From Escherichia coli (lineage in GTDB: Bacteria; Pseudomonadota; Gammaproteobacteria; Enterobacterales; Enterobacteriaceae), in the NCBI RefSeq assembly GCF_003790525.1, contig NZ_CP033635.1: a stretch of 64,000 bases of DNA; one strand, written 5' to 3'. Of the stretch, positions 9,554 to 64,000 are shown piece by piece (position 1 is the stretch's first letter; every line of letters starts with the position of its first letter). The translations under genes and the position numbers were made by a program. The notes beneath the pieces are model-generated. The model was not told the DNA's origin. It saw only the letters and a program-made list of their open reading frames with translations, and did not search any database.

Positions 9554-10450
9554 ATGGCCAAAGAAAGGGCATTAACGCTGGAAGCACTACGGGTTATGGA
9601 TGCGATCGATCGCCGGGGCAGTTTTGCGGCGGCGGCGGATGAGCTGGGACGCGTGCCTTCCGCACTTAGCTACACCATGCAAAAATTGGAAGAAGAGCTG
9701 GATGTGGTGCTGTTTGACCGCTCGGGCCATCGCACCAAATTCACCAATGTCGGGAGGATGTTGCTGGAGCGAGGGCGCGTTTTGCTGGAAGCCGCAGATA
9801 AACTGACTACCGATGCGGAAGCTCTCGCGCGCGGTTGGGAAACGCATCTCACCATTGTGACCGAAGCGCTGGTACCGACACCTGCCTTTTTCCCGTTAAT
9901 CGACAAACTGGCGGCAAAAGCCAATACCCAACTGGCAATTATCACCGAAGTGCTGGCGGGGGCGTGGGAACGGCTGGAGCAGGGGCGGGCGGATATTGTT
10001 ATCGCGCCGGATATGCATTTTCGCTCCTCGTCGGAGATCAACTCGCGCAAGCTCTATACGTTAATGAACGTCTACGTTGCCGCGCCTGATCACCCGATTC
10101 ATCAGGAGCCGGAACCGTTATCTGAAGTGACGCGCGTGAAATATCGTGGAATTGCGGTGGCGGATACCGCTCGTGAGCGCCCGGTATTGACCGTACAGCT
10201 ACTGGACAAACAGCCGCGTTTAACGGTGAGCACGATTGAAGATAAACGTCAGGCATTACTGGCGGGGCTTGGCGTGGCGACGATGCCGTATCCGATGGTC
10301 GAAAAAGATATTGCGGAAGGGCGGTTGCGTGTCGTCAGCCCGGAATCGACCAGCGAGATCGATATTATTATGGCCTGGCGTCGTGACAGTATGGGGGAGG
10401 CGAAATCCTGGTGTCTGCGGGAAATTCCCAAACTTTTTAGCGGAAAATAA
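9554..10450 (+). CDS. yhaJ: LysR-family transcriptional regulator
   Basis: 298-aa ORF with N-terminal HTH region (RVMDAIDRRGSFAAAADELGRVPSALSYTMQKLE...) typical of LysR regulators. Confidence 0.85.
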   Translation: MAKERALTLEALRVMDAIDRRGSFAAAADELGRVPSALSYTMQKLEEELDVVLFDRSGHRTKFTNVGRMLLERGRVLLEAADKLTTDAEALARGWETHLTIVTEALVPTPAFFPLIDKLAAKANTQLAIITEVLAGAWERLEQGRADIVIAPDMHFRSSSEINSRKLYTLMNVYVAAPDHPIHQEPEPLSEVTRVKYRGIAVADTARERPVLTVQLLDKQPRLTVSTIEDKRQALLAGLGVATMPYPMVEKDIAEGRLRVVSPESTSEIDIIMAWRRDSMGEAKSWCLREIPKLFSGK

Positions 10451-47094: not shown

Positions 47095-48646
<1,552 letters not shown>

Positions 48647-48852
48647 TTAACATCTGTTGTTGTTTTGCACGGTTTTTGTCGGGTATGGATTTGGCGATTG
48701 CTGCGCAAATGCACACTTTCAGGGCAACAACTGCCTGATTTTTGGGCAAGATAATTAACGTTTTCGTATAGTAACAGAGTGAAAGTATTTTAAATCAAGG
48801 GATTAGATTTATGCTTTAATCGCAAATTGCGATCTAAATCAAATTAATCAGT

Positions 48853-48880
48853 TAAAGATAACCGCAGTGGGGCCGACATA
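48853..48880 (+). promoter_or_regulatory. candidate sigma-28 (FliA) promoter of aer
   Basis: taaagata-N11-gccgacat about 50 bp upstream of the aer ATG; matches the sigma-28 consensus TAAAGTTT-N11-GCCGATAA at most positions. Confidence 0.45.
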
Positions 48881-48928
48881 AACTCTGACAAGAAGTTAAC
48901 AACCATATAACCTGCACAGGACGCGAAC

Positions 48929-50449
48929 ATGTCTTCTCATCCGTATGTCACCCAGCAAAATACCCCGCTGGCGGACGATACCACTCTGATGTCCACTACC
49001 GATCTGCAAAGCTATATCACTCATGCTAATGACACTTTTGTGCAGGTGAGCGGCTTTACCTTGCAAGAGTTACAAGGGCAGCCGCACAACATGGTGCGTC
49101 ACCCGGATATGCCAAAAGCGGCGTTTGCAGATATGTGGTTCACCCTGAAAAAAGGGGAGCCCTGGAGCGGCATCGTGAAAAATCGCCGCAAAAATGGCGA
49201 CCATTATTGGGTGCGGGCCAATGCGGTACCGATGGTGCGCGAGGGAAAAATCAGTGGCTATATGTCGATTCGTACCCGGGCGACGGATGAAGAGATCGCG
49301 GCGGTGGAGCCGCTGTACAAAGCGTTGAACGCCGGACGTACCAGTAAGCGTATTCATAAAGGCCTGGTGGTGCGTAAAGGCTGGCTGGGAAAACTGCCTT
49401 CATTACCGCTTCGCTGGCGGGCGCGTGGCGTGATGACCCTGATGTTTATCTTGCTGGCGGTCATGCTTTGGTTTGTTGCTGCCCCGGTGGTGACGTATAT
49501 CCTCTGTGCGTTAGTGGTATTGTTGGCAAGCGCCTGTTTTGAATGGCAGATTGTCCGCCCGATAGAAAATGTCGCCCGTCAGGCACTGAAGGTGGCGACC
49601 GGAGAGCGTAATAGTGTTGAGCATCTGAATCGCAGCGATGAGCTGGGGCTGACATTACGCGCGGTAGGGCAGCTTGGCCTGATGTGCCGTTGGCTAATTA
49701 ACGATGTCTCAAGCCAGGTGTCCAGTGTCAGAAATGGCAGTGAGACGCTGGCGAAAGGCACCGATGAACTGAACGAACATACCCAGCAGACAGTTGATAA
49801 CGTTCAGCAAACGGTGGCGACCATGAACCAGATGGCGGCGTCGGTGAAACAGAACTCTGCCACGGCGTCGGCTGCTGATAAACTTTCTATCACCGCCAGT
49901 AATGCGGCAGTGCAGGGCGGGGAGGCGATGACTACGGTGATCAAGACAATGGACGATATTGCCGACAGTACCCAGCGCATTGGCACCATTACTTCGCTGA
50001 TTAACGATATTGCGTTTCAGACCAATATTCTGGCCCTGAATGCGGCGGTGGAAGCGGCGCGTGCCGGCGAACAGGGCAAAGGTTTTGCAGTGGTGGCGGG
50101 GGAAGTGCGTCATTTAGCCAGCCGCAGCGCCAATGCTGCCAACGATATTCGCAAGCTGATTGATGCCAGTGCTGATAAGGTGCAATCTGGTTCGCAGCAG
50201 GTACACGCCGCCGGACGGACGATGGAAGATATTGTGGCGCAGGTAAAAAACGTCACCCAGTTGATAGCTCAGATTAGCCATTCAACGCTGGAACAGGCCG
50301 ATGGGCTTTCCAGCCTGACCCGTGCAGTGGATGAGCTTAACCTGATCACCCAGAAAAACGCCGAGTTAGTGGAAGAGAGTGCGCAGGTGTCGGCGATGGT
50401 GAAACACCGCGCCAGCCGACTGGAAGACGCGGTGACGGTGCTGCATTAA
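48929..50449 (+). CDS. aer: aerotaxis receptor (PAS-FAD plus MCP signalling domain)
   Basis: 506-aa [45 protein letters not shown]... Confidence 0.92.
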
Positions 50450-50477
50450 TCGGTATGCCGGATCCGGCAATCGGTGA

Positions 50478-51101
50478 TTAATCCAGTTGCGTAATATCAA
50501 AAGCGGCGCGGTCGATCACCGCAATGATCTTTTTTATTTGTGCATCAGTGATATCGCTCTGGTTGACGCGTAAATCCAGCACCGCTTTAAAATTATCCAG
50601 CGCCCGCTTCATTTGCGGGTTCTGGCGCAGCGCAGCGCCAACGCAACGCGATTTGATGCGTTCTTCAATCATCTCTACCTGTTCGCGGTTTTCTTCCAGC
50701 CACTGCGCGCCTTGTTCGGTCAGCGCAATCTGCTTCTTACCACCTTCCTCTTCGCGAATGGTAATCAGCGACTGCTCCTGCAGAAAATCCAGCGTTGGGT
50801 AGATGACGCCCGGGCTTGGGGTGTAATTCCCCTGGGTTAGATTCTCAATCGCTTTAATCAATTCGTAACCGTGGCTGTCATCGCGCGAGAGAATATCCAG
50901 AATCACCAGACGTAATTCACCGTGACCAAAGAAACGTTGCCGACGACCGCCGCCGCGACCGTGGCGACCACCGCAGCATTGACCGTGTTCATGCTGGTGA
51001 CCGTGTCCGCAGTGCTCGTGTTCTGACTTCTCACCTTTGCAGCAGCCCTCATGGCGTGGCTGGCCTTCATGTTTACAACACCCTTCGTGATGATGGCTCA
51101 T
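50478..51101 (-). CDS. yqjI: PadR-family Ni/Fe-responsive repressor
   Basis: 207-aa ORF with a His/Cys-rich N-terminus MSHHHEGCCKHEGQPRHEGCCKGEKSEHEHCGHGHQHEHG and a PadR winged-HTH. Confidence 0.88.
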   Translation of the reverse strand: MSHHHEGCCKHEGQPRHEGCCKGEKSEHEHCGHGHQHEHGQCCGGRHGRGGGRRQRFFGHGELRLVILDILSRDDSHGYELIKAIENLTQGNYTPSPGVIYPTLDFLQEQSLITIREEEGGKKQIALTEQGAQWLEENREQVEMIEERIKSRCVGAALRQNPQMKRALDNFKAVLDLRVNQSDITDAQIKKIIAVIDRAAFDITQLD

Positions 51102-51122
51102 ATCAGCCTCCTTTTGCTTAAT

Positions 51123-51136
51123 TAGATATATCTAAT
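51123..51136. promoter_or_regulatory. palindromic TTAGATATATCTAA motif (candidate YqjI operator) at the yqjI promoter
   Basis: Perfect palindrome ttagatatatctaa just upstream of the yqjI start; a related copy ttagatatatctga lies at about 51351-51364 upstream of yqjH. Confidence 0.35.
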
Positions 51137-51200
51137 TTATATCTGATATGAGCACTCTTGCAAGAATAAAAATGATTTTTAAATGTGGCTCATCTCACAC

Positions 51201-51280
51201 GTAGGCCGGATAAGGCGTTCACGCCGCATCCGACATTGAGCAATGATGCTTGATAAGAGGTTGCGCGTCTTATCAGACTA
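51201..51280. repeat. REP element
   Basis: gtaggccggataaggcgttcacgccgcatccgaca in the yqjI-yqjH intergenic region. Confidence 0.5.
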
Positions 51281-51313
51281 CAGATATATCAGTTCTACAA
51301 ATCGCTTGCATTT

Positions 51314-51338
51314 ATCATGATTAACAATCATTATCATT
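51314..51338. promoter_or_regulatory. candidate Fur box upstream of yqjH
   Basis: atcatgattaacaatcattatcatt resembles the Fur consensus (GATAATGATAATCATTATC). yqjH encodes a ferric-siderophore reductase. Confidence 0.35.
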
Positions 51339-51387
51339 TACGAAAATTATTTAGATATATCTGATTACTATCACGAAGGCGATAACA

Positions 51388-52152
51388 ATGAATAACTCCC
51401 CCCGCTACCCGCAGCGCGTTCGCAATGATCTGCGCTTCCGTGAACTGACTGTGTTACGCGTTGAGCGCATCAGCGCCGGTTTTCAGCGCATTGTCCTCGG
51501 CGGCGAGGCGCTGGACGGTTTTACGTCGCGCGGCTTTGACGATCACAGCAAACTCTTCTTTCCTCAACCTGACGCTCACTTTGTGCCGCCAACGGTAACG
51601 GAAGAGGGCATCGTCTGGCCGGAAGGACCACGCCCACCGTCGCGTGACTATACGCCGCTGTATGACGAACTACGCCATGAACTGGCGATCGATTTCTTTA
51701 TTCACGACGGTGGGGTCGCCAGCGGCTGGGCGATGCAGGCGAAACCGGGCGATAAACTTACGGTGGCAGGTCCGCGCGGTTCGCTGGTGGTGCCGGAAGA
51801 TTACGCGTATCAGCTGTATGTCTGCGATGAATCCGGAATGCCCGCACTGCGCCGCCGCCTGGAAACGTTGAGCAAACTTGCCGTTAAACCGCAAGTTAGT
51901 GCGCTGGTTAGCGTGCGGGATAACGCCTGTCAGGATTATCTCGCGCACCTTGATGGTTTTAATATCGAATGGCTGGCACATGATGAGCAGGCGGTAGATG
52001 CGCGTCTGGCGCAGATGCAAATCCCTGCCGATGATTACTTCATCTGGATAACCGGCGAAGGCAAAGTCGTTAAGAATTTAAGCCGCCGCTTTGAAGCGGA
52101 ACAGTATGACCCACAGCGGGTACGTGCAGCGGCTTACTGGCACGCAAAGTAA
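51388..52152 (+). CDS. yqjH: NADPH-dependent ferric-siderophore reductase
   Basis: 254-aa ORF MNNSPRYPQRVRNDLRFRELTVLRVERISAGFQRIVLGGEALDGF... Confidence 0.88.
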   Translation: MNNSPRYPQRVRNDLRFRELTVLRVERISAGFQRIVLGGEALDGFTSRGFDDHSKLFFPQPDAHFVPPTVTEEGIVWPEGPRPPSRDYTPLYDELRHELAIDFFIHDGGVASGWAMQAKPGDKLTVAGPRGSLVVPEDYAYQLYVCDESGMPALRRRLETLSKLAVKPQVSALVSVRDNACQDYLAHLDGFNIEWLAHDEQAVDARLAQMQIPADDYFIWITGEGKVVKNLSRRFEAEQYDPQRVRAAAYWHAK

Positions 52153-52168
52153 CTGATATATATAAAGA

Positions 52169-52196
52169 AAAAGGCTGACGATTTCTCGTCAGCCTT
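52169..52196. terminator. bidirectional rho-independent terminator (yqjH / ileX)
   Basis: Hairpin aaaggctgacg-atttct-cgtcagccttt flanked by A-run on one side and T-run on the other. Confidence 0.5.
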
Positions 52197-52205
52197 TGCT
52201 ATGTC

Positions 52206-52253
52206 TGGTGGCCCCTGCTGGACTTGAACCAGCGACCAAGCGATTATGAGTCA
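52206..52253 (-). other. ileX: 3' partial copy (about 47 nt) of tRNA-Ile2 (ileX, CAU anticodon): island att junction
   Basis: Minus-strand read gives ...GACTCATAATCGCTTGGTCGCTGGTTCAAGTCCAGCAGGGGCCACCA, i.e. anticodon loop, T-arm, acceptor 3' strand and CCA. The 5' half (acceptor/D-arm) is absent; the upstream sequence diverges. Confidence 0.75.
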
Positions 52254-52378
52254 TGAGGCAAGTTCGTTCTATATTGTTTTTGTTTGTTCGTGATTGCTTT
52301 ATTAGTTGTTTGTAATCAATAAATTATGTGATTTTCCCTGTCTCCGCTTGGTTCCGTTTTTTCTTCATTGTACGATCG

Positions 52379-52402
52379 TTACCTGACCCATTACCTGACC
52401 CA
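52379..52402 (+). repeat. tandem 12-bp direct repeat (ttacctgaccca x2) upstream of int
   Basis: Two exact adjacent copies about 47 bp upstream of the integrase ATG, within the island-side arm of the att junction. Confidence 0.6.
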
Positions 52403-52448
52403 AAATCACGAGTTATTCTGATTGTTACTGGTTTAGAAAAGAGGTTCT

Positions 52449-53765
52449 ATGGCCGTCAATCTTACTGAAACAGCCATCCGAGCATTGAAAGCAAAAAAGA
52501 CATCGTTCTATGTCTGGAGCAACAGCTCTCAACGTGGCACTGGACGACTTGGTGTCAAAGTTCAGCCTTCTGGCAGCAAGATTTTCTATTTCCGCTATTA
52601 CGTGGAAAAAGGGAAAAAAGAAAGATTCATTCAATTGGGTATATGGCCTGAGATGAAACTGGCCACAGCGAATGAACTGACAAAAAAGTATGGTGCCTGG
52701 CTCATTGAAGGAAAGGATCCCCAGGCAGAACTGGAACGACAACAGTTTGCAGAACAGCAGCGGATACAACTCCATCAATCACAGGGCTCATTTGAAGCAT
52801 TGATTCATGGTTATGTTAACAAAATGAAAATTGATAATAAGAGGACATGGCAGGATGTTCTGAAACGCCTTGAAAATGAATGCTATACAGTGATCCCCCG
52901 TGAAACTAAAGCTAAAGATGTGACTTCCGGACAGATTAAACATATCCTGGCCGGGATCATTCAGCGCGGTGCTGTGGTTCACTCTAACCGGATCCGTTCT
53001 TACCTGATGGCTGCATTTAACTATGGACTGAAAGCAGATAACGATCCGATGAACACAAGTGTAGGGATTACTTTTGGGCTGGAGGCAAATCCGGTGTCAG
53101 TGATACCGAAACAGTCATCTGCTGAAAAAGTCGGTGATACCTGGCTGACACTTGAAGAGTTGCGTTTTCTAATGGAACATTTTGCTGAAGCAACCAACGT
53201 TGGATTATTGATGCAACATTTGATCCGATTCTGTATCTATACCGGAGGGCAACGTCCTTTCGAAATGATCGCCAGTCAGTGGTGTGATGTTGATTTTCAA
53301 CAAAAAACGCTGCTGGTGACTGCTGATGTCTCTAAAAATAAACGAGAGCATTTGATACCGTTGACTGAATCAGCATTACAGGAATTATCCTGTGTGCAGG
53401 AGTTAACAAAAGAAAAATCCAGCCCTTACATTTTTCCACTTTCGACTAATGGTAAGCGTCCGGTTCGTACGGACAGTCTGGCTCGCGCTATCATGTATTT
53501 CCGGGCTTTTAATCCTGACTTTAAAATTTTTACAGCACGTGACTTACGTCGGACCTGTAAAACGTTAATGGGAGAAGCTGGGATCAGTAAGGAAATCCGC
53601 GATCGTATTCAAAATCATGCGTTGAACGATGTCAGTTCAAAACATTATGATCGATACGATTATTTGCCAGAAAAACGCAGAGCACTTGAGATCTGGGAGG
53701 ACCGGGTTAATAACTATCAACAGCAAACAGGCAATAATGTTGTCAATCTGTTTGGCAGAAGGTGA
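52449..53765 (+). CDS. P4-type tyrosine recombinase / phage integrase
   Basis: 438-aa ORF MAVNLTETAIRALKAKKTSFYVWSNSSQRGTGRLGVKVQPSGSKIFYFRYYV... (typical N-terminal arm-binding region of P4-like integrases); the C-terminal region contains R, H and Y residues compatible with a tyrosine-recombinase catalytic core; adjacent to the tRNA fragment. Confidence 0.9.
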   Translation: MAVNLTETAIRALKAKKTSFYVWSNSSQRGTGRLGVKVQPSGSKIFYFRYYVEKGKKERFIQLGIWPEMKLATANELTKKYGAWLIEGKDPQAELERQQFAEQQRIQLHQSQGSFEALIHGYVNKMKIDNKRTWQDVLKRLENECYTVIPRETKAKDVTSGQIKHILAGIIQRGAVVHSNRIRSYLMAAFNYGLKADNDPMNTSVGITFGLEANPVSVIPKQSSAEKVGDTWLTLEELRFLMEHFAEATNVGLLMQHLIRFCIYTGGQRPFEMIASQWCDVDFQQKTLLVTADVSKNKREHLIPLTESALQELSCVQELTKEKSSPYIFPLSTNGKRPVRTDSLARAIMYFRAFNPDFKIFTARDLRRTCKTLMGEAGISKEIRDRIQNHALNDVSSKHYDRYDYLPEKRRALEIWEDRVNNYQQQTGNNVVNLFGRR

Positions 53766-53894
53766 GGGAGTTCCTGGTTGCTGTACGAATTGTGTACAAT
53801 TGATGGGTATTGTTGATGCACTTGGTTCTTGTATTGTTTACTATAATTATTGAGGTAAATTTTCGTGCCGGTATTACTCAGAGGGGATTCAAAA

Positions 53895-54491
53895 ATGGCT
53901 GTAATTCCAATGTCTTACTCCCCTGCTACTGTAGCTCGTCGTTTTTCGATACTGGATGGAGTAACTATTCAGGGCGTGCTTTACCAGATCATCTGGGATC
54001 CAAAGACTCCGTTTGCTGCGGTAATCGAAGCTGCACCTTCTGTTATTGATGGTGATGTTCGCCATAAGGTTGTTGCCACTCTGGAGCTTCAGCGTCGTCC
54101 CCGGCTTGAAGGCGTGTTTGTCCAGAAATTCTGGGAAGAACAGGATGTTGCTCAGATTGAAGGGATTGTTGTCGATGGCGCTGTACGTGATGTTGGTCTT
54201 GCAACGTTTGTTTATGAAACGATAGTCACAAAAGCGGGCGTTGTACTATTAAGTGATAACGAGCAATATGAAGGAGGTAAAGCTCTCTGGCAGCATATTG
54301 CGCGTCGTTCAACGAATCTGAAGGTGTTTATTTTAGATACTGATTCCGCACGGTATTACCCGTTTGATGGCGAACGGATCAGTTATGACGGGAAAAGCAT
54401 CCCGGAATCAGAAATCTGGAGTGAACATCCTGAGCGAAACAGACACGCTGTCGTTCTTGTGGCTGAATCTGTTAATGGTAAAGCCGCATAA
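53895..54491 (+). CDS. hypothetical protein (198 aa), integrase-proximal cargo
   Basis: ORF 53865..54491; ATG at 53895 has a good SD (agagggga). No family recognised; an R-x-x-G-x-A stretch (VRDVGLA) is only faintly reminiscent of GNAT motif A. Confidence 0.55.
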   Translation: MAVIPMSYSPATVARRFSILDGVTIQGVLYQIIWDPKTPFAAVIEAAPSVIDGDVRHKVVATLELQRRPRLEGVFVQKFWEEQDVAQIEGIVVDGAVRDVGLATFVYETIVTKAGVVLLSDNEQYEGGKALWQHIARRSTNLKVFILDTDSARYYPFDGERISYDGKSIPESEIWSEHPERNRHAVVLVAESVNGKAA

Positions 54492-54573
54492 TTTGCTGAG
54501 TGTCTCATTTTTTGAGATCTTGCTGGAAAGTCTCCTTTGGGGATAGCGAACTGCTATCCCCTTTCTCAGTGAG

Positions 54574-56178
54574 TTACTGTTCGACCAGACATTTTCCCCA
54601 TAAAGGTCGTATCGAGTATCTATCTTCGCTATATGGATTTATTTTATTTTTTTCCCTCTGTGCTATCAGCAACGTGTCGATCTCATCCTTAATAATGTGT
54701 TGAACTGCTTGACGGTAACGGTTAAGCGAAGTGTCACTGATATCTTGTGGAAGTTGTAGACTGCCATCTGCCTTGACAAGTTCATTTACACCATCTTTAA
54801 TTCTGCGTCCCTGACCATCAGGTATACCTTCATTCAGATCATAGCCTTTTAGTCCTGCAAGACGAATATTCACGTCAATCTTTTCTGTACGTATCTTTTT
54901 GTTACTTACCAACAGAATTTTATTGGCGTTATACCATTTTTCAAATATTTCCAGTTGTTTCATGATGTTTGTGAAGTTATTCAGTTCGCTCCTGAATTCA
55001 ATAGATTTTCTAATTTTACGCTCTTTTGCATCAATGTTTATTCCTGGATAATTTATTTCCATTTTTAACGGTTCTGTGTATGCCTGTTGCAGGCAATCAG
55101 CAAGATTCATTGCTGCATCCTGCAGGGTATTGGTATAAATCAGTTTCAGAAGTTCATCACGCTGTATAGTGATTTGACAATAGTCTTTTTCCCATGCGGT
55201 GGTGTTTTCAATCGTGTCACTTTCATCGGAAATAATTGTTGTGAACTTCCAGGTGTAACGAATAAAATCATTTCCTTTAAAATATTGCACTAATTTATTT
55301 AACCATTCATATATTTCCAGAGCATAAAGTTTAACGTATCCATCATATATTATCTTTGTTGCATTTTTGTTGGCTAGCGAAAACATTTTGTCCACGAATT
55401 CTGTACGCCCGATTGTTAGCAATTGTTTTCTAAGTTTACTCACATCGTTAGTATCTGGTTTCTCACAATTCCAGGGACTTTTGTATTCATTTTCAAAAGG
55501 AGAAAGCCATTCAGGAATCTCTGTTTCTGAGTGATAGCAGTTGTTAATAGCCAAACCAAGGGTTCTGGCAAGTATCGCTGATTCATCAATTTGATGGTAT
55601 CGGTTCAGTTGTTCCAGTAATTCTTTAGTACATGAGTGCGCAACAGAAAGATCCTGATGGCAATATCCTTGTCGAACCAGAGCGGGAAGTGGTGAGCAAT
55701 GAGCTTTACAATCTGTCAGAATATTGAACAAATCGTTTCTGACGAATTCTTCCATCTCAGGTGTTTTCCAGCCACCACTATTTTGGCCGACAAATTTTGC
55801 TGTTGGTTCCCTGTTCATATCTCCCCAGGTTTTCAGGCTGACGAGTCTGTTATCAAAACCATTGTATAAATGGCACATAACCTGAAAAGCAGCATACAGA
55901 TCTTTAGATAGTGGATTATCGGTCTCACTTATGGAGTAGTTCTCTCTGTTTTTCTCTAAAATACTTTGGAGTTTTGTGTTAGCGCGTAATGCCGAGAGAA
56001 TCCGATGTTGTTCATCAAACCAAGGACGATATTCTGGATCCAGATACAATCTGCGTGCTTTGAAAATGAGTAGAAGCAACTGTTCGGAAACAGCTTCATG
56101 TATGTGGGGAAACGGCATGGAGGTGCCGGATAAAACACGATAGTACGGGTGGTTTGTTTTTACCTTTTTAGTTACCAT
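54574..56178 (-). CDS. hypothetical protein (about 514-534 aa), AT-rich, convergent with the 198-aa gene
   Basis: Long uninterrupted ORF with Lys/Asn/Glu/Tyr-rich, low-GC composition. No Walker A, HEPN, PD-(D/E)xK or TM signature recognised by eye. Alternative start at Met21 (56118). Confidence 0.6.
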   Translation of the reverse strand: MVTKKVKTNHPYYRVLSGTSMPFPHIHEAVSEQLLLLIFKARRLYLDPEYRPWFDEQHRILSALRANTKLQSILEKNRENYSISETDNPLSKDLYAAFQVMCHLYNGFDNRLVSLKTWGDMNREPTAKFVGQNSGGWKTPEMEEFVRNDLFNILTDCKAHCSPLPALVRQGYCHQDLSVAHSCTKELLEQLNRYHQIDESAILARTLGLAINNCYHSETEIPEWLSPFENEYKSPWNCEKPDTNDVSKLRKQLLTIGRTEFVDKMFSLANKNATKIIYDGYVKLYALEIYEWLNKLVQYFKGNDFIRYTWKFTTIISDESDTIENTTAWEKDYCQITIQRDELLKLIYTNTLQDAAMNLADCLQQAYTEPLKMEINYPGINIDAKERKIRKSIEFRSELNNFTNIMKQLEIFEKWYNANKILLVSNKKIRTEKIDVNIRLAGLKGYDLNEGIPDGQGRRIKDGVNELVKADGSLQLPQDISDTSLNRYRQAVQHIIKDEIDTLLIAQREKNKINPYSEDRYSIRPLWGKCLVEQ

Positions 56179-56957
56179 AATGTTAAATTCTTCCGTCTAT
56201 TGCATAGCTGTTTCCAGTAGAGAAACTTGATACAGTCCTTTGTCAGGACATTGATACAGAGTTAACAGCCTCTACGAAATGGGAATCAGTTATGCAGTGG
56301 CATTATACGATGCTGAATCTAATACGATATCCTTAGCGTTTATTCCTGATTTTTTTACGAGCATTCCCTTTTGTTGCATATTGCTCAGGACGCAAATGAT
56401 TTTACGGTTATAGCCCTCTACAGTCACGTCACTTTCATCTGAAAATATGTATCGTTTTCATTCAATTATTATCTTTTGTCTGCACTTTAGCTTTAGAAAG
56501 TTGGCAAAAATCAACTCCCTCTTACAAGTTCTATTATCGCCAGAAGATAATTTTGTGAACTTCGTCACGTTTTCAAACTAATGTTGTGGGGGCTTTTCTG
56601 GGGAGAATTTTTGGTCACTACCCCTCCTCTTGATATCATAGATTATAACAAGATTTTTTTTGTTTTTGTCTGCATAAAATAACCTACGAATATTGTGATT
56701 TTGATTTTTATTTTGTATACCAAAAAGCATTGTTTAAGTTATTTTTATATTGTGACTTTCTTTGTTGTTATTGTGTTATTAGAAGTCAGTTAATTAAATC
56801 ATTTCTCACAATTTGATTTCTTGGTTGTGCAAATGTATTGTTTTGCTCGTGAGTTGCTGGTGCTGTTCAACAGCATACCACTACAGATAGATGTAGTGAT
56901 TTGAGCAGCTCACATGCATATACAATCTGAAAATCATGAATATATAAGGAGAGCAAT

Positions 56958-57185
56958 ATGTGGAAGCCGTTAAGAGATGAGAACCGTTTATCAATTTTGA
57001 AGATCTATGGATACACCTGTGACAGACTGGTACGAGAAAAGGAACGCCAGAAAATTACGTCTATTTCTCGTTCACAAGCCTGGAAACTGGAACGTGAAGG
57101 AAAATTCCCGCCACGTAAAACTATTGGAAAGAAATCCTGTGGGTGGTTATTAAGTGATCTATTGTGGTGGATTAGTCAGTATTAA
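56958..57185 (+). CDS. AlpA-family phage/island transcriptional regulator
   Basis: 75-aa ORF MWKPLRDENRLSILKIYGYTCDRLVREKERQKITSISRSQAWKLEREGKFPPRKTIGKKSCGWLLSDLLWWI: typical AlpA/Prophage_CP4-57 regulator pattern; strong SD (aaggag). Confidence 0.75.
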   Translation: MWKPLRDENRLSILKIYGYTCDRLVREKERQKITSISRSQAWKLEREGKFPPRKTIGKKSCGWLLSDLLWWISQY

Positions 57186-57247
57186 CCTTATAGTATCAGA
57201 ATAATATATATTTCTATATTTTAATTTTATAATTAAAAAGGAGTTTC

Positions 57248-57994
57248 ATGATGAAACGTGTCTCTTTCTCTCTTGCAGAAACATATGAAGCTGATGTAAT
57301 TAAAAAGTATCAGCATTTAAAAAAATGCTCATTTTCAGCAGCGATTAAAGAGTGTTTAAAGCTAGGGGCTCCTGTTTTAAACAGGATAAATGAAAATATT
57401 GCTGCTATAACTGATATAGAGGATAAGCTACGTCAGTTTTTTAATGAGGAACCATTTGTGCAACGGACAAAGCCTGAAATAACAAAAGGAGAGTTTTTTC
57501 ATAGCATTTATAAATCGCATATCAAATATGAATATGATGTTCTCGATAGAAAGATATTTCCTCATGAAAGCACCAGAAATGCTATGGGAGTTGCAGAGAA
57601 AAAGGGAATTAAAGAGAATGCGACCTTAATGCTGGAATATTATAAAGTTGAGAAGGCAATTTGTATTTACACGAACAGAAAAGTTTCCCATACCCTGAAT
57701 CGTGCAGGAGGGTTTTATAAAACCATTCTGATTAAAACCAGTGTTTTTGGGGATTATTTTTTTGACTTTTGCAATTCAGTTTGCCTGCCGATAGATGAGT
57801 TGATTGAGTATGGTACGAAAGAAACAGTGAGGCGACATCAGATTCGTAGTACAGGATTTTGTACTTTTCATATTCCGATTTTTTATATCAATAATAAGGC
57901 TGTAATAGTGCCTGTTCTGAGAACAGAGGAAGTTTCACAAAGTTCCAGAACAGGTGGAGATGTTATTATTATTAACCCATTTGAAGATGAATGA
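57248..57994 (+). CDS. hypothetical protein (248 aa) with possible N-terminal RHH-like segment
   Basis: N-terminus MMKRVSFSLAETYEADVIKKYQHL resembles the beta-strand-helix start of ribbon-helix-helix proteins; remainder unassigned; SD aaggag. Confidence 0.55.
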   Translation: MMKRVSFSLAETYEADVIKKYQHLKKCSFSAAIKECLKLGAPVLNRINENIAAITDIEDKLRQFFNEEPFVQRTKPEITKGEFFHSIYKSHIKYEYDVLDRKIFPHESTRNAMGVAEKKGIKENATLMLEYYKVEKAICIYTNRKVSHTLNRAGGFYKTILIKTSVFGDYFFDFCNSVCLPIDELIEYGTKETVRRHQIRSTGFCTFHIPIFYINNKAVIVPVLRTEEVSQSSRTGGDVIIINPFEDE

Positions 57995-58215
57995 TTATGG
58001 CCCGCGTAGATTTATTCATAACCCAGAAATCGTGGTGTAAATGATGAACAGAAACCGCTTTCTGAGGTTAAAGAGAGCAATCATTACCCGGGAGTGGCCA
58101 ACTCTTTTATCGAGTACTTTTCCGATGTATCTGGAGAGCCTCCCTTAGAAAAGAGTAATGCGACTCAGGAAAAAACAGGTTCAATAATTAATTCATGACA
58201 CCAGTTTGAGGCATT

Positions 58216-58776
58216 ATGGCGAGTTTTGCATACATAGACTCTGAAAAATGGTCAAAACTTAATCGCTTAAAATCCATGATTCAGAGATATTTTAAAGAAC
58301 CACTATTGCAGTTAACAGGCGAATTGGGTCGCCCGGATTATACTCTGGCAGACAGAAAACGGTTAGTTCGACTCCTGACGCAGGATATGCAAAGGGGTGA
58401 TATTCTGATTACTAAATCGTTAACTTGTTTTGGTAATACGCCGGAAAAAATACAGGAGGTTTTATCTTTAAGTATCAGACAAGGTATTAATATTTGCTTT
58501 TTTACGTCATCAGAGTTGCCGGATGGTGATGATATTCCTGTGGTACTCACCGGGATGATTTTACCTACAGATATTAGAGGAAAAATTCCCGACATCAGTA
58601 TCCGGAAAATTAAAAGAAAACCAGGAAGGAAAGAAGGGAGTATTCATAGTAAAAATATCAGACAGTTGAAATTGCAGGGGTTCAGTCAGTCACAAACAGC
58701 CAGAAAATTAAGCATCAGTTTATCCACTGTAAAAAGACACTGGGATAAAGGTATTGTTGATCTAACTGCAGAGTAA
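58216..58776 (+). CDS. serine-recombinase (resolvase/invertase)-like protein with degenerate catalytic motifs and C-terminal HTH
   Basis: 186 aa; MASFAYIDSEK.. parallels resolvase MxxIGYxRVST.. and GDILITKSLTCFGN parallels GDxLVVxKLDRLGRS, but the conserved Arg/Asp residues are replaced; C-terminal GFSQSQTARKLSISLSTVKRHW is resolvase-type HTH. Confidence 0.55.
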   Translation: MASFAYIDSEKWSKLNRLKSMIQRYFKEPLLQLTGELGRPDYTLADRKRLVRLLTQDMQRGDILITKSLTCFGNTPEKIQEVLSLSIRQGINICFFTSSELPDGDDIPVVLTGMILPTDIRGKIPDISIRKIKRKPGRKEGSIHSKNIRQLKLQGFSQSQTARKLSISLSTVKRHWDKGIVDLTAE

Positions 58777-59041
58777 CATTTTATAGTCCTTGTAGCTATT
58801 GGCAATGGAGTTATAAATACATGTGCGTTGGATAGGTAATATATATTATATCTGTGATGTATAGTATATGTGTAATGATGGATATGATGTACTAATAGAG
58901 CTAATGGTATTCTGATACCAAATAATTAGTTGTGTGTAGATCATAACTCTGTTTAATGTTTTAGAACGTTCTAATGTAACTGTGTAACATCATCCTGTTC
59001 TCTAATGTAACAATAGGCAGTAGCGTTTTTCTTAATTGACG

Positions 59042-59067
59042 CCCAGAGGGTTATATATCCCTCTGGG
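59042..59067. promoter_or_regulatory. perfect palindrome cccagaggg-ttatatat-ccctctggg
   Basis: 9-bp inverted arms separated by an 8-bp AT spacer, about 90 bp upstream of the 204-aa gene; flanked by direct repeats of tctaatgtaac. Confidence 0.4.
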
Positions 59068-59157
59068 AACTACTGATACGAATATTAATATCTGCTTCTG
59101 TTGTGTATTGGGTAGGTTAACTATTAGCTTATCTCTGAAAGCAAAAGGAATATTAAC

Positions 59158-59772
59158 ATGATTACGATTGAAACTCTTTACGGTGAATGTCATGAGGCTC
59201 ACGGGTTAAAAATAAGAAACCAGGTGAATAACCTCTTCCAGAAACATCCCAGAATAACGGCAATACGGGTGGATCTCCATTATCCTCCCGTGATTGACAA
59301 CGGGGATACCATTACCTGTTTTCCTAACCTGAGTCCCGGAGAGATATCTCGTTTCCGTAACTCGCTGAATGCGAAAATTAATGCAGATCAACACCGTAAA
59401 AAACAACAAGGCAAACGCACCTACGCAACGTCGGTTTGTATTATCTGGGCGAAAGAATATACGCAGTCCTTTAAATGTCATTATCACGTCTGCCTTTTTT
59501 TTAACAAAGACGCCTATTACCACCTGGGAGACTATGAGCGCTCTGACACCCTGAGAGGGTTAATTACCGGAGCCTGGTACAGTGCCTTAGGGTTAGAACT
59601 GGAAGATCACCAGGGACTAGTTCATTTCCCTGCTAATGGACGTTACATCCTGGATATTAACGATCCTGATTTCCCTGAGCAATATCAGCGCTTATTGGCA
59701 CGTCTGGATTATCTGACGAAGCTCGACACTAAAGCATCAGGCCAGCGTAACTTTGGCTACAGCGGTTTTTGA
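59158..59772 (+). CDS. HUH-endonuclease (rolling-circle Rep / inovirus Gp2-like, YagK/YfjJ-type) protein
   Basis: 204 aa; contains KCHYHVCLFF (H-u-H motif) and a downstream DYLTK (YxxK-type candidate catalytic Tyr); genomic context matches CP4-type prophage modules. Confidence 0.55.
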   Translation: MITIETLYGECHEAHGLKIRNQVNNLFQKHPRITAIRVDLHYPPVIDNGDTITCFPNLSPGEISRFRNSLNAKINADQHRKKQQGKRTYATSVCIIWAKEYTQSFKCHYHVCLFFNKDAYYHLGDYERSDTLRGLITGAWYSALGLELEDHQGLVHFPANGRYILDINDPDFPEQYQRLLARLDYLTKLDTKASGQRNFGYSGF

Positions 59773-59799
59773 CCTATTGTAACTGTAAGGTGATTTATT

Positions 59800-60366
59800 A
59801 TGTATACAGAATCAAACGTTAAGCTTTCCTGTAACGCCCTCTGGCAAAAGTATGTCCTTGCAACTCTGTATCGGGCTGCAGCTACACATCCTAAAATTAA
59901 ATTATTACAATTTAAATTAATACCTTGCCCAGGTATGAACAAGGCAATTCCCTCTCTGATGGCTGATTTTACTGGTGAACTGCATAGACTAATTTCTGAA
60001 TATTTGCAGTGCAAGCGACGTAAAGATAAATCTGTTGAGCCCGCCCCTTTATATTATCTCTGGAGTAGGGAAGCTGTGGCTAACGATACCACTCCTTATC
60101 TTATGGTACTGCTACTTAATAACGATGTCTGGTGTAAGAGTCGTGAGGTGGTGGCTCTCAGAAATCTGATTGAGCAGGCGTGGGGAAAAGTATTGGACGA
60201 AGATAACTCCATTACACATCAGGTTGTGTATCCTGAAGTGCTGTCGTTGGTATTTGATGCAGCTAACACATACAACGCTGAGCCTGGTGTACTGGAACAG
60301 ACGGCCCAGGCTTACATTGAATCGCATGGTGCCATTGAACGTCATCTTGGGTGTAGTGACTTTTAA
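59800..60366 (+). CDS. paralog of the preceding HUH/Gp2-like gene with degenerate HUH motif
   Basis: 188 aa; aligns by eye to the upstream gene (HPRITAIRVDLHYP vs HPKIKLLQFKLIP; HYHVCLFFNKDAY vs PYLMVLLLNNDVW; LRGLITGAWYSALG vs LRNLIEQAWGKVLD), but the two His of the HUH motif are lost. Confidence 0.5.
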   Translation: MYTESNVKLSCNALWQKYVLATLYRAAATHPKIKLLQFKLIPCPGMNKAIPSLMADFTGELHRLISEYLQCKRRKDKSVEPAPLYYLWSREAVANDTTPYLMVLLLNNDVWCKSREVVALRNLIEQAWGKVLDEDNSITHQVVYPEVLSLVFDAANTYNAEPGVLEQTAQAYIESHGAIERHLGCSDF

Positions 60367-60561
60367 CGACGTCAGGTGATGCATAAGGGCCTTTCGCTGA
60401 GAGGCCCTGTTTACACAATTAAATAAGTCGAACCCGACCAGCAATTTTGACGTTGACGGCAGGATTATTGAGGGGCAATCAATGTGTTCTTCGGCAGCGA
60501 TTACGGTAGTGAACGGACCTGCTGTCTGAATGGTATCGATCCGCAAGCGTATCTGCGCCAT

Positions 60562-61650
60562 TGGATTTGCCCCTATATTTCCAGACACCTGTTATCACTT
60601 AACCCATTACTGGCCCGCTGCCGTAGATATTCCCGTGGCGAGCGATAACCCAGTGCACTATGCGGATGCCATTCGTTATAATGCTCGAACGCCTCTGCAA
60701 GGTTCTTTGCTGCCGTTAACCCGTCTGGTTTGGGCATGATACTGATGTAATCACGCTTTATCGTTTTCACGAAGCTCTCTGCTATGCCGTTACTCTCCGG
60801 ACTCCGCACCGCCGTGTTCTTCGGTTCAAGTCCCAGCATCCGGGCGAACTGGCGTGTTTCATTAGCCCGGTAGCATGAACCATTATCCGTCAGCCACTCC
60901 ACTGGAGATGTCGGAAGCTCGCTGCCGAAGCGGCGTTCCACCGCTCCCAGCATGACGTCCTGTACTGTTTCACTGTCGAAGCCGCCCGTAGTGACCGCCC
61001 AGTGCAGTGCCTCACGGTCACAGCAGTCCAGCGCGAACGTGACCCCCAGTTTTTCTCCGTTATCACAGCGGAACTCGAACCCGTCAGAGCACCATCGTTG
61101 ATTGCTTTCTTTCACGGCCACTTTGCCAGTATGTGCCCGTTTCGATGGCGGTACAGCGGTTTTTCGCTCAAGCAACAGCGCATTCTGGCGCATGATCCGG
61201 TAAACACGTTTGGCATTGATAGCAGGCATACCATCAAGTTCGGCCTGTCTGCGAAGCAGCGCCCATACCCGACGATAACCATACGTGGGCAGCTCTCCGA
61301 TAACATGGTGTATACGGAGAAGCACATCCGTATCATCTGAGTGACGGCTGCGGCGACCATCTTTCCAGTCATCGGTTCGTCTGAGAATGACGTGCAACTG
61401 CGCACGCGACACCCGGAGACAACGGCTGACTAAGCTTACTCCCCATCCCCGGGCAACAAGGGAGACCGTCATTCCCGGTTCAAAGCTCTGCTGAACAATA
61501 GCGATCTTTTCCTGTGTAGTACGCCGTCTGCGTTTCTCCGGCCCTAAGACATCAATCATCTGTTCTCCAATGACTAGTCTAGAAACTAGTATTAAGACTA
61601 TCACTTATTTAAGTGATATTGATTGTCTGGAGATTCAGGGGGCCAGTCTA
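60562..61650 (-). mobile_element. IS2 (IS3 family) with internal deletion of about 240 bp
   Basis: IS2 terminal sequences recognised at both ends (minus-strand 5' TAGACTGGCCCCCTGAATCTCCAGACAA... and ...GGGGCAAATCCA 3'). Length about 1089 bp versus 1331 bp for intact IS2. Confidence 0.85.
60573..61559 (-). CDS. insCD: IS2 transposase derivative: in-frame fusion of InsC N-terminus (about 37 aa) to InsD
   Basis: Product [37 protein letters not shown]|[24 protein letters not shown]... with DDE integrase core. The junction lies between similar VAR/IAR codons; the native -1 frameshift region is missing. Confidence 0.8.
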
Positions 61651-61984
61651 TATATCAATTAATCATTAGTTTAAAAGCTTGTTCAACTGCATACATCATT
61701 AGCGTTTAAGCCAGTGAACAGGAAGTTTACTGGCTTAATTACAGTAATATAGTGTATCGCTATGCTCACTGAGTCTTAGATCTCCACCGTCGGTCTAATA
61801 TTCGCACTCCTGCTAACAACCGGTAATCAAATCGTCCTCCGGTATTGAAAGTTAATACACAAATCAGGATGATGGAGGCTCATACTGGTACAGCGCGACC
61901 ACTTATGCAGGCGTCTCTGTCAGGTTTGTTGCCCGGATCACCCGCATCAGGGACAGGGCTGTTCAGTTATCCGCAGGAGAAAAT

Positions 61985-62995
61985 ATGTCACTCAAGGCTA
62001 TCGCCGCCGAACTCGGGATCTCTGTCACCACAGTCAGCCGGGCGCTTGGCGGATTTTCGGACGTTTCCGCTTCGACCCGTGCACGTGTAGAAGCGGAAGC
62101 TCGGCGTCGTGGTTATCGCCCGAATACCCTGGCAAGACGTCTCAAAACCGGTAAAACCGATGCGGTCGGCCTGGTCTTCCCTGAACATGCTGTACTGTTC
62201 AGCAGTAGTGTGTTTGTGGATATGGTCAGTTGTATCAGCCGGGAACTGGTCCGCCATGATATTGACTTACTGCTGATAGCCGATGATGAACGGGCTGACA
62301 GCCACAGCTATATGCGTCTGGTCGAAAGCCGCCGGGTTGATGCCCTTATCGTGGCGCACACGATGGATAATGACCCGCGTCTTACACACCTGCAGGAGGC
62401 CGGTATTCCGTTTCTGGCACTCGGTCAGGTGCCGTCCGGTCTTCCCTGTGCCTGGTTTGACTTTGATAACCATGCAGGAACCTGGCAGGCCACACAGCAC
62501 CTGATTGCCCTGGGCCATCAGCGAATTGCCCTGCTGAGTGAGGACAACTCCCGTGCCTATGTCACTGCACGACGTCAGGGATGGCGCGATGCCCTGAGTG
62601 AACATGGTCTGCCTGAGACCTGGCTACGCCGGGTCTCTCCCACCCGACGCTCAGGTTTCCAGGCAGTGACTGAGTTAATGTCACTTCCGCTTCCCCCGAC
62701 GGCCATTATTACCGACAGTGACCTGATCGGTGATGGCGCGGCCATGTCGCTGCAGTTATCCGGTCATCTGTCCGGAGAGGATGCCGTCTCTCTTGTGGTT
62801 TATGATGGTCTGCCGCAGGACAGTATTATTGAACAGGATGTGGCTGCAGTTCTTCAGTCAACACGACATCGCGTCGGTCGTCAGATTGCCGACATGATAC
62901 GCCAGCTGGTCACGAATGTTTCACCTGAAATGCTACAAGTACTCTGGCAGCCGGAATTTCATCCTGGCAAGACAACGCTTGCTCCCTCCGCCTGA
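61985..62995 (+). CDS. LacI-family transcriptional repressor (RafR-like)
   Basis: 336-aa ORF MSLKAIAAELGISVTTVSRALGGFSDVSASTRARVEAEARRRGYRPNTLARRL... with N-terminal LacI HTH and periplasmic-binding-protein-like body; directly upstream of an alpha-galactosidase gene. Confidence 0.7.
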   Translation: MSLKAIAAELGISVTTVSRALGGFSDVSASTRARVEAEARRRGYRPNTLARRLKTGKTDAVGLVFPEHAVLFSSSVFVDMVSCISRELVRHDIDLLLIADDERADSHSYMRLVESRRVDALIVAHTMDNDPRLTHLQEAGIPFLALGQVPSGLPCAWFDFDNHAGTWQATQHLIALGHQRIALLSEDNSRAYVTARRQGWRDALSEHGLPETWLRRVSPTRRSGFQAVTELMSLPLPPTAIITDSDLIGDGAAMSLQLSGHLSGEDAVSLVVYDGLPQDSIIEQDVAAVLQSTRHRVGRQIADMIRQLVTNVSPEMLQVLWQPEFHPGKTTLAPSA

Positions 62996-63088
62996 TTTTT
63001 AATCCCGCTCACAAATTCGAATCGTTTCGGTTGCTATCCGAAACGATTCGGATCAACAGTAAGGCATACCCGAAAACGGAGATGTCTT

Positions 63089-64000
63089 ATGGAACCGATG
63101 TACCGCAGGCTGACCAGTCCCCACTCAGACCTGATTATTAAAACCCACCCGTATGCAGAGATTGTCTGGTGGGGATCCACCCTGAAACACTTTTCACCGG
63201 ATGACTGTATCAGCCTGGAAAGGCCGGTTGCGAATGGTCGTCTGGATACCGACACCCCACTGACGCTGATGGCCGAAAACGGCGCGGGACTTTTTGGCTC
63301 GCCGGGGCTGGAGGGACACCGCAACGGGCTGGATGCGTCCCCTGTGTTCCGTACCATCAGCGTGGTACAGGCCGGAGAATCACTCACCCTGACCAGTGAG
63401 GATGCAGTGGCGGGTCTGCGCATGGTCAGTGAACTGGTGCTGACATCGTCCGGTGTGCTGAAGATGCGTCATGCCCTGACGAACCTCCGTGAAGGGGACT
63501 GGCAGGTGAACCGCTTCGCCATCACGCTCCCTGTGGCTGAAAGGGCAGAGGAAGTCATGGCCTTCCACGGACGCTGGACTCGTGAGTTTCAGCCGCACAG
63601 GGTCCGTCTCACACATGACGGTTTTGTGCTGGAGAACCGCCGGGGCCGCACGTCCCATGAGCATTTTCCGGCACTGATTGCCGGTGCCCCCGGTTTCTCA
63701 GAACAGCAGGGCGAGGTGTGGGCCGTACATCTGGGCTGGAGTGGCAACCATCGCATGAAATGTGAGGTCAAAACTGACGGACGGCGTTACCTCCAGGCGG
63801 AAGCACTGTGGATGCCCGGAGAAAAAGCCCTGAAGAAGGATGAGACCGTGTACACGCCGTGGCTGTACGCCAGCTATTCCCCGGAGGGGCTCAATGGTAT
63901 GAGTCAGCAGTACCACCGTTTTCTGCGCGATGAAATCATCCGTTTTCCTGAGCAGAAACCCCGTCCGGTGCACCTCAATACCTGGGAAGGTATTTATTTT
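63089..64000 (+). CDS. alpha-galactosidase, GH36 (RafA-like), 3' end outside window
   Basis: Open frame from ATG 63089 to the window end: MEPMYRRLTSPHSDLIIKTHPYAEIVWWG...RPVHLNTWEGIYF (GH36 N-terminal domain pattern). Not in the ORF track because there is no stop within the window. Confidence 0.7.
   Translation, partial: MEPMYRRLTSPHSDLIIKTHPYAEIVWWGSTLKHFSPDDCISLERPVANGRLDTDTPLTLMAENGAGLFGSPGLEGHRNGLDASPVFRTISVVQAGESLTLTSEDAVAGLRMVSELVLTSSGVLKMRHALTNLREGDWQVNRFAITLPVAERAEEVMAFHGRWTREFQPHRVRLTHDGFVLENRRGRTSHEHFPALIAGAPGFSEQQGEVWAVHLGWSGNHRMKCEVKTDGRRYLQAEALWMPGEKALKKDETVYTPWLYASYSPEGLNGMSQQYHRFLRDEIIRFPEQKPRPVHLNTWEGIYF

Follow-up and report, generated by a model that had tools for sequence, protein, structure and literature searches.

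Attachment junction and integrase gene at ileX

The DNA analysed here, referred to as the window, is a stretch of 64,000 nucleotides (nt) of Escherichia coli (RefSeq assembly GCF_003790525.1, contig NZ_CP033635.1), and its last 11.8 kb (52206..64000) are interpreted as the integrase-proximal part of a genomic island located at ileX, the gene for tRNA-Ile2 (anticodon CAU). Read along the plus strand, the window passes from the chromosomal gene nfeF (yqjH; 51388..52152, plus strand), the flank downstream of ileX, through the native intrinsic terminator of ileX (52170..52197, minus strand) and a 3' piece of ileX itself (52206..52252, minus strand) to an integrase gene, int (52449..53765, plus strand). 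The open reading frame (ORF) of nfeF is annotated under that name in matching genomes and is collinear with K-12.

The plus strand of 52206..52252, read directly, is tggtggcccctgctggacttgaaccagcgaccaagcgattatgagtc. Its reverse complement agreed base for base with the 3'-terminal 47 nt of K-12 ileX, from G30 in the anticodon stem to A76 of the CCA end, and chance cannot account for an exact match of this length at the native locus of the tRNA. At 52253 the window has an 'a' where K-12 has a 'g'; this is the first base of island DNA, and no likeness to K-12 was found to the right of it. On the other side, the terminator found by the terminator scan (a 12-bp stem followed by a T run) is the same as that of K-12 and is still joined to the fragment, the terminator and the nfeF flank being collinear with K-12 except for two single nucleotide polymorphisms. 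A preliminary description of this DNA, made without database searches, had placed the ileX remnant at 52206..52253, contiguous with the native terminator and yqjH; comparison with K-12 bears out the fragment and its contiguity, and shortens it by one base, to 52252. The G+C content falls from 51-56% to 35-44% on crossing the junction into the island.

No tRNA gene was called by ARAGORN in the whole window, the fragment included, and Rfam found no tRNA within 48000..64000; therefore the 5' half of ileX is truly absent at this junction and has been replaced by island DNA, as had been proposed. A complete ileX over 52206..52290 was looked for with ARAGORN and no tRNA was found there. The Rfam matches that were returned (naRNA4, a snoRNA and plastid ycf2) all scored below their gathering scores and were judged irrelevant. 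That of naRNA4, a nucleoid-associated RNA derived from repetitive extragenic palindromes, lies on both strands at 51204..51279 in the nfeR-nfeF intergenic region (50.7 bits, gathering score 59.5).

The int gene encodes a tyrosine integrase of 438 aa. The gene points away from the fragment, with its ATG at a distance of 196 nt, in agreement with the earlier statement that an integrase starts about 195 bp from the partial tRNA copy and reads into the island. The protein matched Pfam Arm-DNA-bind_3 (E = 8e-14, residues 5-97), Phage_int_M and Phage_integrase (E = 8e-10, residues 232-391), as well as phrog_1 (E = 7e-46), so that the N-terminal arm-binding domain and the C-terminal tyrosine recombinase domain of the P4-like (Arm-DNA-bind_3/DUF4102) architecture are both present. 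Because its score against the IntA-type model PRK09692 of NCBIfam was far under the cut-off (75.6 bits, cut-off 434), the integrase was placed within the broad P4-like architecture class and outside the specific PRK09692 family. The catalytic residues R, R, H and Y are conserved in the alignment, and two motifs, RDLRRTCKT (residues ~365-371; RD(L/V)RRT in its clade form) and KHYDRYDY (~397-404), are kept in its relatives from E. coli to Pseudomonas and Providencia phage PSTCR3.

Far end, attachment sites and extent of the island

A 4.3-kb query across the int junction was searched against 5426 complete E. coli genomes at a coverage of at least 80%, and the junction was found in 427 of them. 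Two finished genomes that match the window, N-01 and strain 20, served as references for the far end. N-01 is 99.7% identical to the window across 13.7 kb and carries an intact tRNA (CAU) at a distance of 45.3 kb from the fragment, with mug and rpoD after it; this tRNA is on the same (minus) strand as the fragment, which lies on its 3' side. Strain 20 is 100% identical over the query and 99.9% over 12.8 kb; its intact tRNA is ~61 kb away, again with mug and rpoD after it, at a far end identical to that of N-01, and the difference of 16 kb is due to an extra asparaginase/dcu block. The expectation that an intact ileX and the other junction would lie past the end of the window, in an island longer than 11.8 kb, thus held in both genomes, where the island measures 45-61 kb. 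Int is the only integrase annotated in either island and it sits at the end with the displaced fragment, as the preliminary description had it; an intact ileX beside this integrase was seen in no finished assembly.

Taken by itself, the window shows only a stub of ileX, which is also what would be left if the gene had been destroyed by a deletion or an illegitimate insertion, leaving an orphan 3' end, no intact copy and a cell that relies on ileY. Genomes matching the window at 99.7-100%, however, carry an intact hybrid tRNA at the far end, and the far junction is about as common as the int junction (442 and 427 of the 5426 genomes, respectively). Simple loss of ileX was rejected on the evidence of the finished genomes, and we regard destruction of the gene as highly improbable. 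The findings instead correspond to a tRNA island as defined for Islander: a displaced 3' tDNA fragment lies downstream of the tDNA in the same orientation, element sequence has restored an intact tDNA at the opposite end (seen in N-01 and strain 20, outside the window), and a tyrosine-recombinase integrase gene lies within the interval.

The att sites were compared by aligning K-12 attB with the window junction and with the far junction of N-01. A segment of 20 nt, GACTCATAATCGCTTGGTCG in the tRNA sense (52233..52252, minus strand), is identical at both island ends and covers the anticodon loop, the 3' anticodon stem and the variable loop; the remaining 27 of the 47 nt, on the T-arm side, have five differences between the ends. 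The second copy that had been predicted for the 47-nt segment is thus present at the far end, with exact identity over 20 nt only. Judged from this alignment, the crossover must lie within 52233..52252, because only these 20 nt are identical at both ends; the overlap region is likely to be the anticodon loop, the 7 nt that separate the two halves of the stem.

The intact tRNA at the far end is a hybrid, in which the chromosomal 5' half of ileX is joined to a T arm and a terminator borne by the element (47244..47319 of the 49.5-kb N-01 stretch, L001, and 10299..10374 of locus L005, both outside the window). Its T arm is GTTGG-TTCAAAC-CCAAC, as opposed to GCTGG-TTCAAGT-CCAGC in the native gene; the change in the stem is compensatory, and the hybrid is still called a tRNA by ARAGORN. 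A T arm with GTTGG..CCAAC is not of the E. coli type, and it is the type of the native fragment in loci of Kluyvera ascorbata, Enterobacter sp. Bisph1, Escherichia sp. ESNIH1 and Brenneria alni. This match gives a hint of the previous host of the element.

The element-side att arm and the region upstream of int (52253..52448, plus strand) were aligned with 19 loci from other genera. This side of the fragment was conserved, including two tandem copies of TTACCTGACCCA at 52379..52402 (plus strand), 47-70 nt upstream of the int ATG, and the repeat was invariant across genera. The motif is again present twice 57-80 nt past the 3' end of the hybrid tRNA; there are four matches in the 49.5 kb of the N-01 stretch, two per island end, against 0.12 expected. 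The repeats are candidate arm-type Int-binding sites and probably serve as such. When the two ends are joined, the deduced attP reads two arm repeats, terminator, antisense tRNA 3' part, ~125 nt, two arm repeats, ~46 nt and int. In most genera (L006-L034) a third, inverted arm copy, GGGTCAGGTAA, stands just before the int ribosome-binding site.

A composite origin was considered as well, in which int would belong to a second element inserted in the distal repeat of an older island without an integrase, so that the two ends would derive from different elements. The mosaic make-up of the island (modules for sugar utilisation, type I restriction-modification and Ag43/CbtA), the 16-kb size difference between strains, and a tandem array in this family, that of Phytobacter described below, are in keeping with such an origin. 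Against it, the E. coli islands hold exactly two core copies with no internal fragment, a single integrase and the same arm repeat at both ends, and a second element of the canonical kind would have put int beside the intact or reconstituted tRNA, which is not the case here. A composite origin is accordingly given little credence, if slightly more than the destruction of ileX. Since there are two core copies and one integrase, the island is taken as one element and not as a tandem array.

The gene content is that of the CP4 type, with genes for an AlpA-like protein, YagM, YagK/YfjJ, a GTPase, DUF932, antirestriction, RadC-JAB, DUF987, YeeU-CbtA toxin-antitoxin and DUF4942 proteins; genes in the window were identified by PHROGs and RefSeq names, and those further away by the annotation of N-01 and strain 20. 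Several observations weigh against the reading of one site-specifically integrated island. Its far end is outside the window and was deduced from strains whose shared part is 99.7-100% identical to the window. The third, inverted arm copy is missing in E. coli and E. albertii, where 52403..52448 is occupied by unrelated sequence, and no sigma-70-like promoter was predicted between fragment and int in a scan of 52100..52500. The first His of box II, present in IntA and IntF, is replaced throughout the clade by an Arg that belongs to the RDLRRTCKT motif; as this Arg is conserved, the integrase is probably active nonetheless. Finally, many insertion sequence (IS) elements and pseudogenes are found in the island of N-01 and strain 20, so mobility may have been lost, while int and the alpA-like gene are intact, as are both att ends, and the ability to excise may persist. 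On balance, with a probability of about 0.9, we conclude that 52206..64000 is the integrase-proximal part of one island of 45-61 kb, of the CP4-6 type in gene content, integrated site-specifically in ileX.

Orientation of the attachment core in relatives and known systems

Relatives of Int were collected in a scan with one genome per species, which gave 77 loci with 36-98% identity to the Int of the window, and the 400 nt upstream of int were examined for a well-formed tRNA T arm, whose sense relative to int was scored. An antisense T arm was found at 68 of the 77 loci and a sense-orientation T arm at none. Six of the nine loci that failed this strict test have decayed or variant T stems, yet a piece or motif in the mirror sense; two are N-terminally truncated int matches, and one (L020) is without a recognisable piece. 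An intact tRNA beside int is absent in 76 of the 77 loci. The sole exception, in Pseudomonas mandelii (L082), has a complete tRNA-Gly (CCC) called by ARAGORN, antisense, 134-207 nt upstream of int; it is either a full-length tRNA copy carried by the element or the regenerated end of a different configuration.

The identity of the tRNA piece tracks the integrase subclade. It is Ile2 (CAU) at nearly all Enterobacterales and Vibrionaceae loci with an Int identity of at least 46%; Arg (UCU) in Vibrio, Proteus, Xenorhabdus, Photorhabdus, Providencia, Gilliamella and a few other Enterobacterales (37-44%); Asn (GUU) in the methanotrophs Methylomonas and Methylobacter (36-40%); and Gly (CCC) in Pseudomonas (36-37%). 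The alignment of the window with the 19 loci of other genera shows conservation on the int side of the fragment, while the T arm and all that lies beyond the fragment are host-specific, as would be expected of an int-proximal piece that represents the displaced 3' end of the host gene. At the far end of the 10-kb island of [Erwinia] mediterraneensis (L008) stand the intact tRNA, a terminator and the arm repeats; the fragment next to int has decayed and reads CAC as its anticodon. In Phytobacter ursingii (L012) two 3' fragments of tRNA-Ile2 lie 5 kb apart (4832 and 9788) upstream of int, an arrangement suggestive of a tandem array in which a second, unrelated element occupies the same tRNA.

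The same order is found in a free attP. In the circular genome of Providencia phage PSTCR3 (L085, 2210..2495), two arm repeats, a terminator, the antisense 3' part of tRNA-Arg (UCU), ~115 nt and two further arm repeats precede int, as in the joined ends of the ileX island, and RD(L/V)RRT and KHYDRYDY are both present. PSTCR3 differs from the island in being a true phage, in its target, tRNA-Arg (UCU), in its Int, which is 39% identical, and in its arm repeat, which is ACTTGACCCG on both sides of its tRNA piece versus ACCTGACCCA in the ileX island.

These comparisons bear on whether the layout arose secondarily, by inversion of a whole canonical island (tRNA, int, ..., direct repeat) after its integration, which would have moved int to the far end. 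The many IS copies in the island could mediate such rearrangements, but a flip of the interior cannot swap which junction holds the hybrid tRNA and the element terminator. Moreover, conservation across genera extends from int through the intervening sequence to the very edge of the fragment, and the layout recurs in 68 of 77 relatives across orders, in the 10-kb Erwinia island, which has no IS-mediated history, and in the free attP of PSTCR3. Inversion of the whole island was rejected on the clade-wide layout, the Erwinia island and the PSTCR3 attP, and hardly any weight is left to it.

Site-specific integration with int at the displaced fragment, the reading adopted here, has a published counterpart. 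Among 1273 integrase-tRNA pairs, Panis et al. 2010 (PMC2951348) counted 736 of the STI class and 438 convergent ones, the SIT class and the divergent OD class together making up less than 8%, and named ptwF-intF of the K-12 cryptic prophage CP4-6 as a case of OD. The ileX island has the OD shape: int and the tRNA fragment are on opposite strands and divergent, with att overlapping the region upstream of int and the arm repeats in between. The layout of CP4-6 was checked in K-12, where thrW is followed by the YkfI/YafW toxin-antitoxin pair and intF lies at the far end, divergent from a 3' fragment of thrW ~100 nt away. CP4-6 therefore resembles the ileX island in having the intact tRNA at the toxin-antitoxin end and int at the far end, diverging from the displaced fragment and reading inward, and the two have a common backbone (YagM, YagK/YfjJ, GTPase, DUF932, antirestriction, RadC-JAB, DUF987, YeeU/CbtA-type toxin-antitoxin and DUF4942). 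They differ in target (thrW versus ileX), in the distance from fragment to int ATG (~100 versus 196 nt) and in cargo, the raf/csc-like sugar genes, type I restriction-modification system and Ag43 of the ileX island being unlike CP4-6. IntF was rejected as a close homologue of the ileX-island Int, the two being 25% identical over the catalytic domain only (E = 1e-05); because of this low identity, the common layout does not stem from a recently shared integrase.

Canonical P4-like islands, such as CP4-57 at ssrA with intA and PR-Y/KpLE2 at leuX with intB, are of the STI shape, with int directly after the intact gene and in the same sense. In the ileX island, unlike at ssrA-intA and leuX-intB, the core is antisense to int. 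The two kinds are alike in that att abuts the int promoter, in the AlpA-type regulator and in the order of the backbone, relative to int, from int to toxin-antitoxin; IntA also has Arm-DNA-bind_3 and the catalytic domain, at 24% identity over the full length. The preliminary description had called the arrangement the mirror of the common one. The layout is indeed real, although it is neither specific to this locus nor undescribed, being a trait of the clade and of the published OD shape.

The locus ileX has been recorded before as an insertion site in E. coli, for LAA modules (PMC5539235) and for an integrative element of O145:H28 (PMC7067040); both share the chromosomal site with the present island, a likeness known by site name alone. 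In the literature on ileX islands, only mentions of ileX as an insertion site were found, and the Islander paper and a Klebsiella tDNA preprint held nothing on an integrase at the fragment end. With its layout already published as OD, the ileX island is a sound but ordinary case.

Other genes, proposed integration mechanism and implications

Between int and the AlpA-like gene lie two cargo genes with a G+C content of 36-43%. The first (53895..54491, plus strand) encodes a protein of 198 aa that matched phrog_7522 (function unknown; E = 6e-124) and had no match in NCBIfam, PADLOC or Pfam; the second (54574..56178, minus strand) is an ORF for a protein of 534 aa without a match in NCBIfam, PADLOC, PHROGs or Pfam. 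With PADLOC, NCBIfam and Pfam empty for both, no assignment to a defence system is possible. The int-alpA interval of related islands often holds variable cargo.

The AlpA-like excisionase/regulator of 75 aa (56958..57185, plus strand) matched phrog_2790, 'excisionase and transcriptional regulator' (E = 3e-22), and is annotated as a helix-turn-helix regulator in matching genomes; the preliminary description had already counted on an AlpA in this element. The backbone of CP4-6 type follows at 57248..60366, all on the plus strand, with a YagM family protein (57248..57994; RefSeq annotation of matching genomes, PHROGs and K-12 CP4-6 yagM), a protein of 186 aa (58216..58776), an inovirus Gp2 family protein (59158..59772; RefSeq annotation of matching genomes and PHROGs) and a YagK/YfjJ domain protein (59800..60366; RefSeq, PHROGs and K-12 CP4-6 yagK). 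It is interrupted by a transposase ORF of IS2, IS3 family (60573..61604, minus strand; NCBIfam PRK09409, IS2 TnpB, 688 bits), which separates the low-G+C backbone from a sugar-utilisation block with 56% G+C. The start of this block (61985..64000) comprises a LacI-family regulator (61985..62995, plus strand; NCBIfam LacI-family matches and the annotation of N-01 and strain 20) and an alpha-galactosidase gene that begins at ~63088 on the plus strand (start mapped by offset from 12774 of the N-01 stretch) and is cut by the window end at 64000. In the finished genomes the block goes on with a major facilitator superfamily transporter, a GH32 hydrolase, a fructokinase and a porin.

From the arrangement of the att sites, integration may be pictured as follows. 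The attP of the element would lie just upstream of int and would hold its own terminator and a tRNA copy that extends from the anticodon loop to CCA and is antisense to int, with two TTACCTGACCCA arm-type repeats on each side of the core. Strand exchange by Int would take place in the 20 nt of identity surrounding the anticodon loop. It would join the 5' half of the chromosomal ileX to the 3' part and terminator of the element, so that a functional hybrid tRNA stands at the far end, and the 3' 47 nt of the host gene, with their terminator, would be displaced so as to adjoin the int promoter. It is because the core is antisense to int that int comes to lie at the junction with the displaced fragment and diverges from it, as in the OD class. 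The analogy with IntF, IntS and P4 Int suggests autorepression, in which Int, bound at the arm repeats 47-70 nt ahead of the int ATG, would probably repress the int promoter; excision would probably be directed by the AlpA-like protein. For IntF, 23-fold repression of its own promoter has been reported (PMC2951348).

The current understanding of site-specific integration is left unchallenged by these results. They fix the boundaries and the crossover interval of an island present in about 8% of complete E. coli genomes, and they show that the ileX of island-bearing strains is a hybrid, with a T arm from another genus that offers a hint to the donor. The layout would shield int from read-through of the tRNA gene and would set the att arm over the int promoter, an arrangement known to give autorepression in CP4-6. 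An integrase without an adjoining tRNA gene can still belong to a tRNA island, and pipelines that look for an intact tRNA and then for int will mis-orient or miss the antisense class.

A wider proposal, for and against which we see about equal grounds, is that these integrases form a well-delimited P4-like clade, marked by RDLRRTCKT and KHYDRYDY and with an attP core fixed antisense to int, in Enterobacterales, Vibrionaceae, methanotrophs, Pseudomonas and at least one phage. Its members would target the anticodon loop of tRNA-Ile2, Arg (UCU/CCU), Asn, Gly (CCC) and others, and int would always stand beside an unannotated tRNA stub, so as to look like an orphan. If this is true, surveys that pair integrases with annotated tRNA genes, in which OD has been rated rare, would systematically undercount the antisense class, and the constraint on polarity would inform how arm asymmetry and the order of strand exchange are coupled when integrases switch tRNA targets.

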